A stretch of DNA of 64,000 nucleotides. It comes from Escherichia phage 212. The position numbers were made by a program, and so were the translations under genes. Positions 33,591-55,213 of the stretch are shown here, one piece after another; the first letter of the stretch is position 1; the number at the start of each line of letters is the position of its first letter. The notes under the pieces are model-generated. The model was given only the letters and a program-made list of their open reading frames with translations, did not search any database and was not told where the DNA came from. The stretch lies in sequence record PQ765507; one strand, written 5' to 3'.

Positions 33591-33615
33591 CATAATGATT
33601 CCATACTGAGTTACA
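33591..33615 (+). repeat. conserved promoter/leader cassette copy 1 (CATAATGATTCCATACTGAGTTAC)
   Basis: One of 5 near-identical copies (33591, 34109, 34636, 54583, 55172), each 40-60 bp upstream of an ATG. Confidence 0.6.
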
Positions 33616-33647
33616 CACTGAATCAAACAAAACTTTGGAGAAATAAA

Positions 33648-34073
33648 ATGAACTTTCTGACCCTGACCTCTGCATTCTCTGTTACCCGCATCACTAACAA
33701 AATGGTTGCTGACGAAGTATGTGAAATCTGCATTCGTGAAGATGCACTTATTCATCTGACTTCAACCCAGATTGTTGCCATCGCCAAGTCCCTTAATTCT
33801 GAACTGAAGGTAAACACCAAACAGTCAAAAGAATCTATCATTGAATTAATCCAAGCTGAAATGATTGAATTCCCAATTGAAGAAGTTAAAGAAGAAAAAA
33901 TCCAGTCTAAATCTGGTAATGCTCGTGACATTTGCTTCCAGGCATTTGCAGAAATTGATATGAATGATAATGCAGCTCGTCGCGCTCTGATTGATGTTCT
34001 GGTTACCACCCATGATATCAAAAAGACCGTTGTTCAGTCATATGCATCCAACTTCCGCAAAGCTCAAAAATAA
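33648..34073 (+). CDS. hypothetical protein sharing a C-terminal domain with the next gene
   Basis: 141 aa from ATG 33648; C-terminus AARRALIDVLV...VQSYASNFRK. Confidence 0.5.
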   Translation: MNFLTLTSAFSVTRITNKMVADEVCEICIREDALIHLTSTQIVAIAKSLNSELKVNTKQSKESIIELIQAEMIEFPIEEVKEEKIQSKSGNARDICFQAFAEIDMNDNAARRALIDVLVTTHDIKKTVVQSYASNFRKAQK

Positions 34074-34156
34074 TTGAGAAAAGTGTTTTACTTCCAGGTG
34101 GGATAGTGTATAATTATCCCATACTGAGTTACCAAATAAACAAACGGGATAATAAA

Positions 34157-34600
34157 ATGAAAACTTCAAAACTGGTTAAGTATGTTAAACTGGCATTAAA
34201 CAACTCTTCTGAAGCTGAAGCACAATCCGCTGCACGTATGTTCTTCAAACGTCTGACAGCTGAAGGTATTTCATTTAACCCGGCAGTATTTGGTATCACT
34301 CGTGGCGAAGCTGCTAAACTGGCAACACTGGCAGGTAAAATTTTTAAAGGTCTGAATGATGGACAGGTTAAACCAGAAGTTAAACCTACTCCTAAATCTG
34401 AACCAAAAGCTGAGCGTAAGGCACCTAAACGCTCCGGTATGAGCAACAAAGATTTATGCTATGATATGTTCAAAACTGTCAATATGTCTAATGGTGCCGC
34501 TCGTAGGGCTGTTATTGATATGATTGTGCGTGAGTTTGGATTCAACAAAGCATCAGTTCAGTCTTATGCTTCCAACTTCCGCAAAGAATTTGAAATTTAA
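34157..34600 (+). CDS. hypothetical protein, C-terminal paralog of the preceding gene
   Basis: 147 aa from ATG 34157; C-terminus AARRAVIDMIV...VQSYASNFRK. Confidence 0.5.
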   Translation: MKTSKLVKYVKLALNNSSEAEAQSAARMFFKRLTAEGISFNPAVFGITRGEAAKLATLAGKIFKGLNDGQVKPEVKPTPKSEPKAERKAPKRSGMSNKDLCYDMFKTVNMSNGAARRAVIDMIVREFGFNKASVQSYASNFRKEFEI

Positions 34601-34682
34601 TTAAAAAGGGGGTATACAAGCCCCCTGCTTTAAGGCATAATGATTCCATACTGAGTTACACAATAAAACACTGGAGAATAAA

Positions 34683-34988
34683 ATGAAATTCATCATCAAC
34701 CTGGCGCTTGTTGACTTTGATAAAACTGGTAATTTCACATCTGCTGAAAATATGATTCGTAACACCAAGTTCAAAGTGCAAGTCCAACAGGCGGTAGCAA
34801 AAGAGTTCTTTACTGATAAATTAACTAACGTTGTTAATCACCTGAATGTGCAAGTTAAATTCACTCGTGAAGCGGAAACTACTGTTGCATTTGATTTTGA
34901 CTGTCAATACCATGATGAATATGTTCGCCGCATCCTGGATATTGTGTCTGATGAACTTTATTATGGTGTGCAGGAAAACAAAATCTAA
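34683..34988 (+). CDS. hypothetical protein
   Basis: 101 aa ORF behind cassette copy at 34636. Confidence 0.45.
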   Translation: MKFIINLALVDFDKTGNFTSAENMIRNTKFKVQVQQAVAKEFFTDKLTNVVNHLNVQVKFTREAETTVAFDFDCQYHDEYVRRILDIVSDELYYGVQENKI

Positions 34989-35021
34989 ATGAATGGGCGA
35001 AAGCCCCTTGAGGAAAATATT

Positions 35022-35420
35022 ATGAATATTGAAGATAAAGAAATGCAAGAGTTGTATAATTCATTAACACCTGAACAACAAAAATATGCAAAAGACCTGG
35101 GAGCTGCGTTAACTCGTGAGATTGAACAAATAGACCCTGAAACACACTGGAAGGCGGAAGCAGCAACATTGGAAGAAGCAATTAAGCGAAATGAATGGAT
35201 TGTCGAAACCAAGATTGGCGCTGATGGTTGCTCTGTTGAGGTGTCAGCTGTAGTTAAAGGTACTCATGGTGAAAAATCACGGGGCTGGCATAATGAGGCA
35301 AACAAATATATTGTTCTCTCAACGTCAAAAACTTATGGTCAAAAGGTTCCTGTATCCAAAGCTATTATTAAGCAAGCTCAATGGGAAGCCAATGAAATCT
35401 GCCTCGCAAAAATGAAATAA
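35022..35420 (+). CDS. hypothetical protein
   Basis: 132 aa from ATG 35022 preceded by conserved GAGGAAAATATTATG RBS box; the track ORF starts earlier at 34989. Confidence 0.5.
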   Translation: MNIEDKEMQELYNSLTPEQQKYAKDLGAALTREIEQIDPETHWKAEAATLEEAIKRNEWIVETKIGADGCSVEVSAVVKGTHGEKSRGWHNEANKYIVLSTSKTYGQKVPVSKAIIKQAQWEANEICLAKMK

Positions 35421-35423
35421 AAT

Positions 35424-52970: not shown

Positions 52971-53977
52971 GAACTGTTATGAAGGGATATTTTGGCTCCC
53001 ACCTTTATGGAACAAGTACTCCGGAATCTGATGTTGATTTTAAAGAAATCTTCGTTCCTCATCCGCGAGATATCCTGCTCGGAACCGCGATGAACCATAC
53101 AAACCTGAACACGAATAACACGGCTACCAAAAATACAAAAGATGATGTTGACCATGAACTTTATAGTCTGAAATATTTCTTTAAACTGGCAGCCGAAGGC
53201 GAAACCGTTGCCCTGGACATGATTCACACACCGGCTGACCTGGTTGTCAAATCCGATTTACCAGATGTATGGAAGTTTATTCAGGATAACCGTTCGCGGT
53301 TCTATACAACTAACATGAAAGCCTATTTGGGGTATGTCCGTAAGCAAGCTTCCAAATATGGTGTTAAAGGTTCTCGATTGGCTGCACTGCGTGGTGTACT
53401 GGCAATCGTTAACCAGATTCCTGAACAGTGGGTTGATTATCAAGAAGACGGTTCGACTAAGCAACGTCGCACTAAGGTAGAAGATATCAAACACAGACTC
53501 CCTGAAAACGAGTTTTGTGAATGGGTATTCCATAATCATGAGAAAACAGGTCCTCAAACGTTCTATACTGTTCTTGGACGTAAGTACCAAACCACCTTGT
53601 CTTTAATCGAGCTCAAGCAATCTCTGAATAAGCTCGATGCGGAATATGGCGAGCGCGCTCGTAAGGCTGAAGCTAATGAAGGTATCGACTGGAAAGCTCT
53701 GAGTCATGCTTATCGGGCTGGATACCAGTTGAAGGAAATCTATATGACTGGCGACCTCCAATATCCTTTACGTACAGCGCCATTTATCCTTGAAATCAAA
53801 CAAGGGCTTCATGCTTTTAAAGATGTACAGGCTGAACTTGAAGCCATCGTTGATGAAGTCGAAACTAATGCTATCTGGGCAGCTAAGAATGGTATGCCTG
53901 CGAAGGTGGACATGAAGTTCTGGGACAAGTTTGTTGAAGAGGTATATCTTGACAACCACAATTCCTATTATCGATAA
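52967..53977 (+). CDS. Pol-beta-superfamily nucleotidyltransferase-like protein
   Basis: 336 aa from ATG 52967 (GAGGA RBS); canonical motif GSHLYGTSTPESDVD (GS-x3-G-x5-SD-x-D). Confidence 0.6.
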   Translation: MRTVMKGYFGSHLYGTSTPESDVDFKEIFVPHPRDILLGTAMNHTNLNTNNTATKNTKDDVDHELYSLKYFFKLAAEGETVALDMIHTPADLVVKSDLPDVWKFIQDNRSRFYTTNMKAYLGYVRKQASKYGVKGSRLAALRGVLAIVNQIPEQWVDYQEDGSTKQRRTKVEDIKHRLPENEFCEWVFHNHEKTGPQTFYTVLGRKYQTTLSLIELKQSLNKLDAEYGERARKAEANEGIDWKALSHAYRAGYQLKEIYMTGDLQYPLRTAPFILEIKQGLHAFKDVQAELEAIVDEVETNAIWAAKNGMPAKVDMKFWDKFVEEVYLDNHNSYYR

Positions 53978-54236
53978 CCAGGAAATCAAGGTCTTCTTAT
54001 CATATGGAAGACCTAATAAAGGTCGGCGCTGGTATCTCGAAGCAGTCTGTCGGGAAACTGGGCGTCGGGTCAATATCAAGTACACATGTAAACCAACTTC
54101 CAAGCAAACTCGCATGTTTGTTAACTGGGCTATCAATACTATAAGATTCCATAATTTTTGGAGTGCAATTTAAGTGCTTCAATGAATTTGTAGTATAATA
54201 AACATACTCAATGTTGAGTTGATAAAAGGTAAAAAT

Positions 54237-54518
54237 ATGAAATTAAAATTAAAAGTAGCTATAGGCCTGCTGGCCGCTGTTATGTCTTTTGGCGTACTGG
54301 CCACTGAAGGCACAAGCCCCGGTGGCCAAGGTTCAAGTCAATCAGCAGGCCCTTCTAATGGTTCTGCACATGCATCACATTCTCAAGGTATAGAGAATAT
54401 TAAATCCAGCTATGTAAATACCACTCACGGTAAAGCACAGGAAGCATGGGCGAAAGGTAGAGTAGTTACTGATTCTGTTTTCTGTCATATGCCAAAATAT
54501 GTTGGTTGTAAGAAATAA
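54237..54518 (+). CDS. small secreted protein
   Basis: 93 aa from ATG 54237; signal peptide KLKLKVAIGLLAAVMSFGVLA. Confidence 0.45.
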   Translation: MKLKLKVAIGLLAAVMSFGVLATEGTSPGGQGSSQSAGPSNGSAHASHSQGIENIKSSYVNTTHGKAQEAWAKGRVVTDSVFCHMPKYVGCKK

Positions 54519-54522
54519 TCTA

Positions 54523-54546
54523 AGGACCCTTCGGGGTCCTTTTTTA
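54523..54546 (+). terminator. rho-independent terminator
   Basis: AGGACCC-TTCG-GGGTCCT hairpin followed by TTTTT. Confidence 0.75.
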
Positions 54547-54629
54547 TTTTAAAAAGTAGTGTACAACCAGATGGTCATAAGACATAATGATTCCATACTG
54601 AGTTACCAAATAAACAAACGGAGAATAAA

Positions 54630-54836
54630 ATGTTAGAATTAATCAAAGCTGCTGGTGAAAAAGGTCTGATGGTTAACACTCGTGACCCTGAACAACGTCA
54701 AGCATTTGGTGAGTTAAAAGCCAAAGGTCTGGTTAAAGCATCCCTTGGTATTGGTAATGCTTTGCGTGTGACTTTGACCCCTGCAGGTAAAGCAATGTTC
54801 TTCCCTAAACCATTACCAAAACGTCGTCGCAAGTGA
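54630..54836 (+). CDS. hypothetical basic protein
   Basis: 68 aa ORF behind cassette copy at 54583. Confidence 0.4.
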   Translation: MLELIKAAGEKGLMVNTRDPEQRQAFGELKAKGLVKASLGIGNALRVTLTPAGKAMFFPKPLPKRRRK

Positions 54837-54842
54837 GGAATT

Positions 54843-55145
54843 ATGAAGAAGTATGAACTTGACATGATTGAGGCATGTCTGAAATCTGCTGACCATTTTA
54901 AGTTGAAAATGCACAAGTTAAGAGGAATGGTCAAAACTCCAGAAGAGAAGAAGCGATATGCTCTTAAGGAGAAATGTAAAGCTCTTATCATGATGGATAA
55001 GCTGCAAATGGTCGCCGCAGAAGCTCACAGGACACGTAAAGCCGAGGCCCTTGGTGTTTATATGGCAGAGCAGCTTCATCGTGCACAGCAAGCCGTTAAG
55101 AGCGTCTGGTTCAGCGGTGAAAATACTGAAAGAACTTTTAATTAA
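54843..55145 (+). CDS. hypothetical protein
   Basis: 100 aa, GAGGAA RBS. Confidence 0.4.
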   Translation: MKKYELDMIEACLKSADHFKLKMHKLRGMVKTPEEKKRYALKEKCKALIMMDKLQMVAAEAHRTRKAEALGVYMAEQLHRAQQAVKSVWFSGENTERTFN

Positions 55146-55213
55146 ATGTGTACATAGTATGGGGATAGACGTATAATGTTCCCATACTGAGTTACCAAAT
55201 ACTGGAGAATAAA

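Follow-up and report, generated by a model that had tools for sequence, protein, structure and literature searches.

A probable early-expression cassette of promoter, leader and ribosome-binding site repeated before small accessory genes in a T4-like coliphage

The 64,000-nucleotide (nt) stretch of Escherichia phage 212 analysed here (record PQ765507; the whole stretch is hereafter called the window) carries near-identical copies of a 25-nt repeat, YATAATGATTCCATACTGAGTTACC, in front of five small open reading frames (ORFs). Judging by its sequence, the source is a T4-like coliphage of the genus Gaprivervirus: positions 33000–36000 are 98–99% identical to T4-like coliphages, with Escherichia phage P479 and Shigella phage SP18 as the best matches. 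The cassette region lies just downstream of a three-tRNA cluster (32711–32944) and consists of a long run of small plus-strand ORFs, typical of the early or "hyperplastic" part of T4-type genomes.

A scan for YATAATGATTCCATACTGAGTTACC with up to three mismatches returned exactly five matches in the window, at 33591, 34109, 34636, 54583 and 55172, the places named in a preliminary description of this DNA. All lie on the plus strand with 0–2 mismatches each, and no match occurred in 100 dinucleotide-preserving shuffles of the window. A 14-nt core, CCATACTGAGTTAC, does not differ among the five copies. The distance from the 25-mer to the ATG of the following ORF is 57, 48, 47, 47 and 42 nt, in line with the 40–60 bp described earlier. 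A second conserved block at the 3' end of the cassette, GGAGAATAAAATG, supplies the gene that follows with its Shine-Dalgarno sequence and ATG; it is exact in three of the five copies (34673, 54620 and 55204), with the variants GGAGAAATAAAATG at 33637 and GGGATAATAAAATG at 34145. When the copies were aligned with their flanks, as the preliminary description had suggested, the boundaries of the unit became visible. The columns from ATAAT through GAGTTAC are invariant, as is ATAAAATG further on, an A-rich tract and GTGTACA-like bases are common to the copies upstream, and no likeness remains after the ATG. A candidate sixth copy at 25052, with one core mismatch, has no −35/−10 context and was rejected as a chance match. 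No good reverse-complement match that could provide an antisense partner of the core was found elsewhere in the window.

None of the downstream ORFs matches Pfam, and they belong to five PHROGs of unknown function. They had been described as encoding unrelated proteins, which is correct for three of them, related neither to one another nor to the remaining two; the ORFs starting at 33648 and 34157 have unrelated N-termini and a common C-terminal domain (42% identity over 73 amino acids, E 6e-17). As these two ORFs are also adjacent, one could suppose that the repeats are remnants of a single duplicated gene start, or of tandem gene duplication. However, the similarity between copies stops at the ATG, the N-termini of all five ORFs are unrelated, and the copies are found up to 21 kb apart, genome-wide and before different PHROG families. 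Since the N-termini are unrelated and the likeness ends at the ATG, the repeat is not a gene-start remnant, and we consider duplication of this kind scarcely conceivable; the discrete non-coding unit proposed earlier is what the alignment delimits.

The first six bases of the 25-mer form a −10 hexamer, CATAAT or TATAAT. A −35 element (TGTACA, TTTACT or TATACA) is located 16–17 bp upstream of it, preceded by a G and an A-rich tract, and a consensus scan called all five copies as sigma-70-type promoters, with spacers of 16–17 bp. Transcription is predicted to start at the A of CC-A-TACTGAGTTAC, the seventh base past the hexamer, and because of this position of +1 the rest of the 25-mer would take in the discriminator and the initial ~13 bases of the transcript. 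The 25-mer is, in other words, a −10 hexamer joined to the start region of a sigma-70 promoter, which is a known kind of element.

All five copies have this layout on the plus strand. Copy 1 (33560–33650) has an A-tract, −35 TGTACA at 33568–33573, −10 CATAAT at 33591–33596, a predicted +1 A at 33603 within the core at 33601–33614, GGAG at 33637–33640 and the ATG at 33648; a terminator-like GC stem-loop with a T-run precedes it (33501–33532; RNAfold hairpin 33501–33524, −15.5 kcal/mol), and its ORF (33648–34073) encodes 141 amino acids. Copy 2 (34078–34159) has −35 TTTACT at 34087–34092, −10 TATAAT at 34109–34114 and a predicted +1 at 34121, with a hairpin around the −10 (34095–34126, arms TGGGATA/TATCCCA, −16.1 kcal/mol, z score −2.5). 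The 3' block of this copy contains GGATAATAAAA (34147–34157), a site of the type cut by the endoribonuclease RegB, which is considered below, and its ORF, which encodes 147 amino acids, runs from the ATG at 34157 to 34600. In copy 3 (34601–34685), the −35 TATACA (34613–34618) forms the loop of a GC hairpin (34607–34626) that is followed by CTGCTTT; the −10 CATAAT lies at 34636–34641, the predicted +1 at 34648 and GGAGAATAAAA at 34673–34683, and the ORF from the ATG at 34683 to 34988 encodes 101 amino acids. Copy 4 (54519–54632) begins with a predicted intrinsic terminator (54522–54541) and T-run (to 54550), followed by an A-tract, −35 TGTACA at 54560–54565, −10 CATAAT at 54583–54588, a predicted +1 at 54595, GGAGAATAAAA at 54620–54630 and an ORF encoding 68 amino acids (ATG 54630, to 54836). 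Copy 5 (55140–55216) has −35 TGTACA at 55149–55154, −10 TATAAT at 55172–55177, a predicted +1 at 55184 and GGAGAATAAAA at 55204–55214, and it precedes an NrdC.8-like ORF encoding 174 amino acids (ATG 55214, to 55738); the hairpin around its −10 (55152–55192, arms AGTATGGGG/CCCATACT) reaches −19.5 kcal/mol (z −4.2), and none of 200 shuffles was as stable. A stem-loop is thus present at each of the five copies, at differing positions: upstream, around the −35 or around the −10. A plus-strand terminator scan of these stem-loops called only that at 54522–54541.

The leader is A/C-rich and 27–45 nt long. Its conservation across copies and genera, as a 5' untranslated region, would be expected of a structured cis-regulatory RNA, whether riboswitch-like or a structured processing signal. 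Against this, structure prediction, also suggested in the preliminary description, left the leaders nearly or completely unpaired in their centroids: the five predicted own transcripts fold worse than shuffled sequences (z +0.9 to +1.9, the highest value for copy 1). A leader of this size is also short for such a role, and no Rfam match appeared even at E up to 1, which leaves a structured RNA very improbable. In an Rfam search of 32500–34800, only tRNAs were above threshold, with no family match for the leader or for a structured stretch at 33395–33532 that is described further on.

The 3' block offers a more specific link to RNA processing. RegB is an endoribonuclease of T4 that works with ribosomal protein S1 (PMC3014915) and cuts GGAG in early leaders. 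The window encodes it too (46622–47080, plus strand; PF10715 REGB_T4, E 2.2e-72); as in T4, the gene is served by a separate early promoter (−10 at 46589) and has GGAG as its Shine-Dalgarno sequence. The strong RegB/S1 cleavage consensus, cut between G and A, is GG*AGRAYARAA, in the form in which PMC3014915 cites it from Durand 2006. Taken in that form, it is matched exactly by GGAGAAUAAAA, and four of the five copies fit it exactly, while the block of copy 1, GGAGAAAUAAAA, differs from it by a one-base insertion. Seven sites in the window fit the pattern GGAKRAYARAA, where 0.97 would be expected, and the cassettes contain four of them. The RegB-type sites are intergenic, occupy the Shine-Dalgarno position and are unpaired in the predicted own transcripts. 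The 3' block would then double as Shine-Dalgarno sequence and RegB target. Because of the match to the consensus as cited and the presence of regB in the window, the earlier idea of a regulatory or RNA-processing leader has concrete support for the 3' block and holds in substance, with cleavage itself a prediction.

Considering these features, we think it very likely that each repeat is a complete early-gene expression cassette, and that it represents, in Gaprivervirus, a lineage-specific version of the PeSLs, the mobile cassettes of T4-type phages that combine an early promoter with a stem-loop (Arbiol 2010, PMC2839356; Comeau 2014, PMC4122927). Its 5' part would consist of the stem-loop (enclosing the −35 or the −10, or else placed upstream and followed by a T-run) and an A-rich UP-like tract. 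The −35 (GTGTACA/GTTTAC), the 17-bp spacer and the −10 (YATAAT) would be read by the sigma-70 RNA polymerase of the host immediately after infection, and transcription would begin at the A of CC-A-TACTGAGTTAC, inside the conserved block that spans discriminator and start. An unstructured A/C-rich leader would lead to GGAGAAUAAAAUG, acting as Shine-Dalgarno sequence and as a strong RegB target with ribosomal protein S1, through which RegB would later inactivate the early mRNAs. With one ~100-bp module in front of many small accessory genes, its copies could undergo homologous recombination, by which the ORFs lying between them would be deleted, inserted or swapped, and such exchanges would in turn explain why the module is found before unrelated genes.

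Comparison with close relatives agrees with this last point. In PeSLs, recombination between copies excises or inserts the intervening ORF (PMC2839356, PMC4122927), and in the region of the ORFs studied here, gene content differs among relatives precisely at the cassettes. Phage CJ20 and Yersinia phage P8 have an extra segment of ~370 bp, with a small ORF, between two cassette copies. Its counterpart in the window is the single copy at 34109, a hybrid with the promoter half of one flanking CJ20/P8 copy and the leader half of the other; the alignment pieces to CJ20 and P8 overlap at 34110–34159, and the crossover lies within CCATACTGAGTTA. The terminator tail at 33520–33532, where alignment pieces again overlap, is the junction of an ORF insertion of ~590 bp in P479, CJ20 and P8. 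Around copy 4, P479 is without 53978–54518, and the junction (54519) is the first base of the terminator of this copy; SP18 has 54175–54545 replaced, with the junction (54546) in the A-tract; and P8 has 54178–54558 replaced, with the junction (54559) at the −35. The SP18 promoter at this place is a chimera, its spacer and −10 being of the copy-5 type and its leader of the copy-4 type. From one start to the next, the distances in the window are 518, 527 and 589 bp, so that an ORF with its cassette makes a unit of the size discussed in PMC2839356 and PMC4122927. The cassette-mediated gene acquisition put forward in the preliminary description is in substance borne out, since gene-content junctions in relatives fall inside cassettes, and it matches the published behaviour of PeSLs.

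These junctions also bear on a different view of the core, as the promoter of a phage single-subunit RNA polymerase or as the site at which a dedicated recombinase or a homing endonuclease acts to move the cassettes. An invariant block of ~20 nt across the start site is comparable in length to T7-type promoters, Arbiol et al. speculated on a specific protein acting at PeSLs, and homing endonuclease genes are annotated in P479. The cassettes nevertheless have a canonical −35/−10 with a 17-bp spacer and a UP-like tract, no single-subunit RNA polymerase is annotated in P479, and the junctions are scattered over the terminator, UP tract, −35 and core. As they fall at different places of the cassette, homologous recombination fits better than cutting at one site, and there is little chance that such a polymerase or recombinase is involved.

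One gene-content difference nearby is of another kind. An ORF encoding 143 amino acids at 34989–35420 is present in the window and P479 and absent from SP18, CJ20 and P8 (deletion ~34990–35437), with deletion junctions outside the family-A cassettes. Its left end is marked by a GC hairpin, GGGCGAAAGCCC, and its right end by a promoter-like site (TTTACA/TAGTAT) and a hairpin.

The window has ~13 early promoters built to this general design, and the five copies make up one sub-family of them. In the remaining members the −10 lies at 31682, 32016, 43665, 44117, 44442, 46589, ~50713 and 57774. Those at 31682 and 32016 are two sister promoters (31642–32053, plus strand) of a second leader family (TATCCCATCAACTACTG..GGAG), and those at 43665, 44117 and 44442 form a further group of three (43620–44480, plus strand). 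In the complete genome of P479, we counted ~35 early promoters, ~11 with the CCATACTGAGTTAC leader and ~15 with the second leader, CCATCAACTACTG(A)GGAG. Six ORFs in 43366–44507 and 30729–31747 open with ATGAAAACTTATCAAGAATTT.. (MKTYQEF.., repeat family D2); they make up a family of small early paralogues, part of which is preceded by promoters with the second leader.

A 96-nt query made of one cassette matched 8–14 places per genome in more than 40 Gaprivervirus records, single places in a few other coliphages, and Morganella and Providencia phages. In Morganella phage MP1 (Gualtarvirus), the same motif has been independently annotated as a "putative promoter discovered using MEME". The MP1 motifs consist of GTGTACA, N17, a −10 (CATAAT, TATAAT or TATTAT) and CCCATACTGAGTTA, with a rho-independent terminator before the motif at one of the three sites fetched. 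This occurrence of the same core in a Morganella phage of another genus was not found in the PeSL papers or T4 reviews consulted, and a search of the literature library found nothing on promoters of the VR7 group. A scan of IMG/VR for −35/−10 pairs gave mostly chance matches in unrelated contigs; the usable pieces, from VR20 and VR26, held no new arm variants of the hairpins discussed below.

Across 14 copies (11 from P479 and 3 from MP1), the information content is 1.68 bits/position in the −35 and 1.78 in the −10. It is 1.66 bits/position over the 19 nt of discriminator and initial transcribed sequence, against 0.50 in the spacer. Had recombination alone homogenised the copies, the spacer would have become uniform as well, and selection therefore seems to act on the start block. 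Most simply, the block forms part of the promoter proper, since initial transcribed sequences affect output by themselves and can change it about 10-fold (PMC5961368, PMC12464699). A transcribed core conserved like the hexamers beside a spacer that is not was likewise absent from the PeSL papers and T4 reviews consulted.

Alternatively, the block from −6 to +13 (CCATACTGAGTTAC) could be a separate regulatory site, an addition to the promoter cassette and not a replacement for it, in the form of either an operator for a phage shut-off factor or a sigma-70-dependent promoter-proximal pause. The contrast of 1.66 with 0.50 bits/position, with three copies coming from another genus, favours a site of this sort, as does the fact that the shut-off mechanism of T4 early promoters is unknown according to PMC2988021 and PMC3014915. 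For the pause form in particular, CATACT at −1 to +5 is −10-like and retains the critical −10 positions A2 and T6. However, the second leader family (CCATCAACTAC) differs in sequence and has no −10-like hexamer, which means that the whole set of early promoters cannot depend on one factor or pause. Nor was a candidate protein for binding the block identified, and the effect of initial transcribed sequences on output could by itself explain the conservation. We regard a separate site as unlikely, and favour a start block that belongs to the promoter.

The hairpins around the −10 are a second feature shared by many promoters of this design. In about 40% of the P479 early promoters, one arm lies in the spacer and the other in the discriminator/start region, with the −10 in the loop and no T-run. 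The arms vary between promoters yet stay complementary: two otherwise similar promoters have GGGGTC/GACCCC and GGGAGC/GCTCCC, and further examples are GGTACAGGT/ACCTGTACC and GTGTAGG/CCTACAC. When 5' flanks were re-paired with the 3' flanks of other promoters, 5000 permutations never gave a mean helix as long as the observed one; helices of at least 6 bp are present in 12 of the 35 P479 promoters, a count also reached in 0 of 5000 permutations. In the window, such hairpins lie at 31660–31702 and 32000–32030 (the two sister promoters), 34095–34126, 43648–43690 (ATAGGGT/ACCCTAT) and 44429–44457 (GATGGGATA/TATCCCATC), the last two with different arms and belonging to two of the group of three promoters, and at 50685–50723 and 55152–55192. 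One was also found in MP1. Of the 35 P479 promoters, 14 have only a hairpin around the −10, 10 only a GC hairpin upstream or at the −35, 1 both and 10 neither. That the two kinds are largely mutually exclusive (one-sided Fisher p = 0.007) suggests that they are positional variants of one component. Covarying −10 hairpins were not found in the PeSL papers or T4 reviews consulted.

In T4, promoters of e, soc, 49 and I-TevI lie in hairpins (PMC3014915), and as in the present phage, read-through RNA contains the whole hairpin while the own transcript is without the 5' arm. Those are late promoters, however, and the hairpins there mask the ribosome-binding site, which is generally not so here. Masking of the ribosome site in read-through RNA as a general role was rejected, as accessibility equalled that of a shuffled-upstream control (Wilcoxon p = 0.65); the Shine-Dalgarno sequence is masked at ~6 of the 35 promoters and at none of the five copies. 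At six P479 sites (46501, 61658, 100651, 3025, 20087 and 82635), read-through RNA is predicted to pair the Shine-Dalgarno sequence and the own transcript to leave it free, with 0–1 of 30 shuffled controls as tight; these six would be a device of the e/soc/49 type placed on early promoters. When G-T wobbles were set against A-C wobbles, which contrast the RNA with the DNA level, the helix gain was 17 versus 10 positions. The −10 hairpins may act on read-through RNA, either insulating the downstream leader or protecting the 3' end of the upstream cistron after a RegB cut. Alternatively, they may have arisen in the absence of selection, by mutation through quasi-palindrome template switching.

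GC hairpins followed by T-rich sequence at 34607–34626 and at P479 20087, 39113 and 92689 have the −35 of the next promoter as their loop (e.g. GGGGGTATACAAGCCCCC). With the −35 in the hairpin loop, a terminator-like stem-loop and a promoter overlap.

Several points weigh against the reading of the repeats as PeSL-type early cassettes. The start site, the early timing and RegB cleavage, together with the recombination mechanism, are predicted from sequence. The copies at 34109 and 55172 have no upstream stem-loop of the PeSL type, their hairpin bracketing the −10 without a T-run. Recombination alone also leaves unexplained why the −6 to +13 block equals the hexamers in conservation when the spacer has diverged, and the block would for this reason have a function beyond those of the cassette set out above. 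An extra regulatory layer could be imagined, in which the two-version block (CCATACTGAGTTAC/CCATCAACTAC) acts as shut-off operator or pause site and the −10 hairpins act as insulators or 3'-end protectors; it does not appear in the PeSL papers or T4 reviews consulted, and we give this composite scheme a small chance.

Two other features of the window stand apart from the cassettes. A Macro-domain protein (PF01661, E 5e-8) is encoded at 47992–48471, directly downstream of an ORF annotated as valyl-tRNA synthetase (modifier) in P479. The structured non-coding stretch at 33395–33532 follows the tRNA cluster and folds strongly (−48.5 kcal/mol, z −3.5). It contains a T-arm like that of a tRNA, GGTTCGAATCCCGG, and a terminator closes it, with no tRNA called by ARAGORN and no Rfam match. 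Its equivalents in T4 may be the small stable RNAs C and D, which come from the tRNA region of that phage.

The repeat is real, its preliminary interpretation was essentially right, and the kind of element is already known. It adds a Gaprivervirus example of T4-like accessory-gene shuffling, in which each small gene has its own plug of promoter, leader and ribosome site and would be moved by recombination between such plugs. The motif allows about 35 early promoters to be called in each genome, which helps annotation, and the cassette could offer a compact, strong and self-limiting early expression module for engineering. Should the start block and −10 hairpins be functional, they would provide a sequence handle on early transcription and the fate of early mRNA in T4-like phages.

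Among known systems, the early promoters of T4, used immediately after infection by unmodified host RNA polymerase with no need of phage proteins and described as "uber" promoters with UP, −35, TGn and −10 elements (Hinton 2010, PMC2988021), resemble the cassette promoters in being strong sigma-70 promoters with a GTTTAC-like −35, a TATAAT −10, UP-like A-tracts and extra conserved positions. In contrast, no TGn extended −10 was called in the five copies. A simple scan of the first 50 kb of T4 found neither the CCATACTGAGTTAC nor the CCATCAACTAC leader; the promoters it recovered were too few for the hairpin rule to be examined in T4, whose RefSeq record has no annotated promoters. The strong RegB/S1 sites of T4 early leaders likewise occupy an intergenic Shine-Dalgarno position, are predicted to be single-stranded and occur together with regB; cleavage is known for T4 and predicted for the present phage. 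The N25 early promoter of phage T5 also has an AT-rich transcribed region (~+1 to +20) within a very strong promoter, with a ~10-fold effect (PMC12464699). It differs in belonging to another phage and in its sequence. The surroundings of the N25 start site (GATTC-ATA) may also resemble those of the cassettes.

The closest counterpart is the PeSL, described in RB49/phi1, T4/PST and KVP40/nt-1 (PMC2839356, PMC4122927). Both have an AT-rich tract, a sigma-70-type early promoter, a stem-loop and a Shine-Dalgarno sequence with ATG; both occur in many copies, in variable regions, before small ORFs of unknown function; and in both, indel or replacement junctions between close relatives lie inside the motif and chimeric motifs are found. 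Circular DNAs formed when neighbouring copies recombine are a further trait of PeSLs. The stem-loop, which in PeSLs lies upstream of the promoter as a terminator or attenuator, is in part a point of difference: copies 1, 3 and 4 have a GC hairpin upstream or around the −35, whereas in copies 2 and 5 (and in ~40% of early promoters) it is displaced to the −10, without a T-run. The consensus here is also lineage-specific (GTGTACA −35), and the conserved block runs ~13 nt into the transcript. Because the promoter, AT tract, Shine-Dalgarno/ATG, multi-copy variable location, and junctions and chimeras are all present, we assign the repeat to the PeSL-type cassettes.

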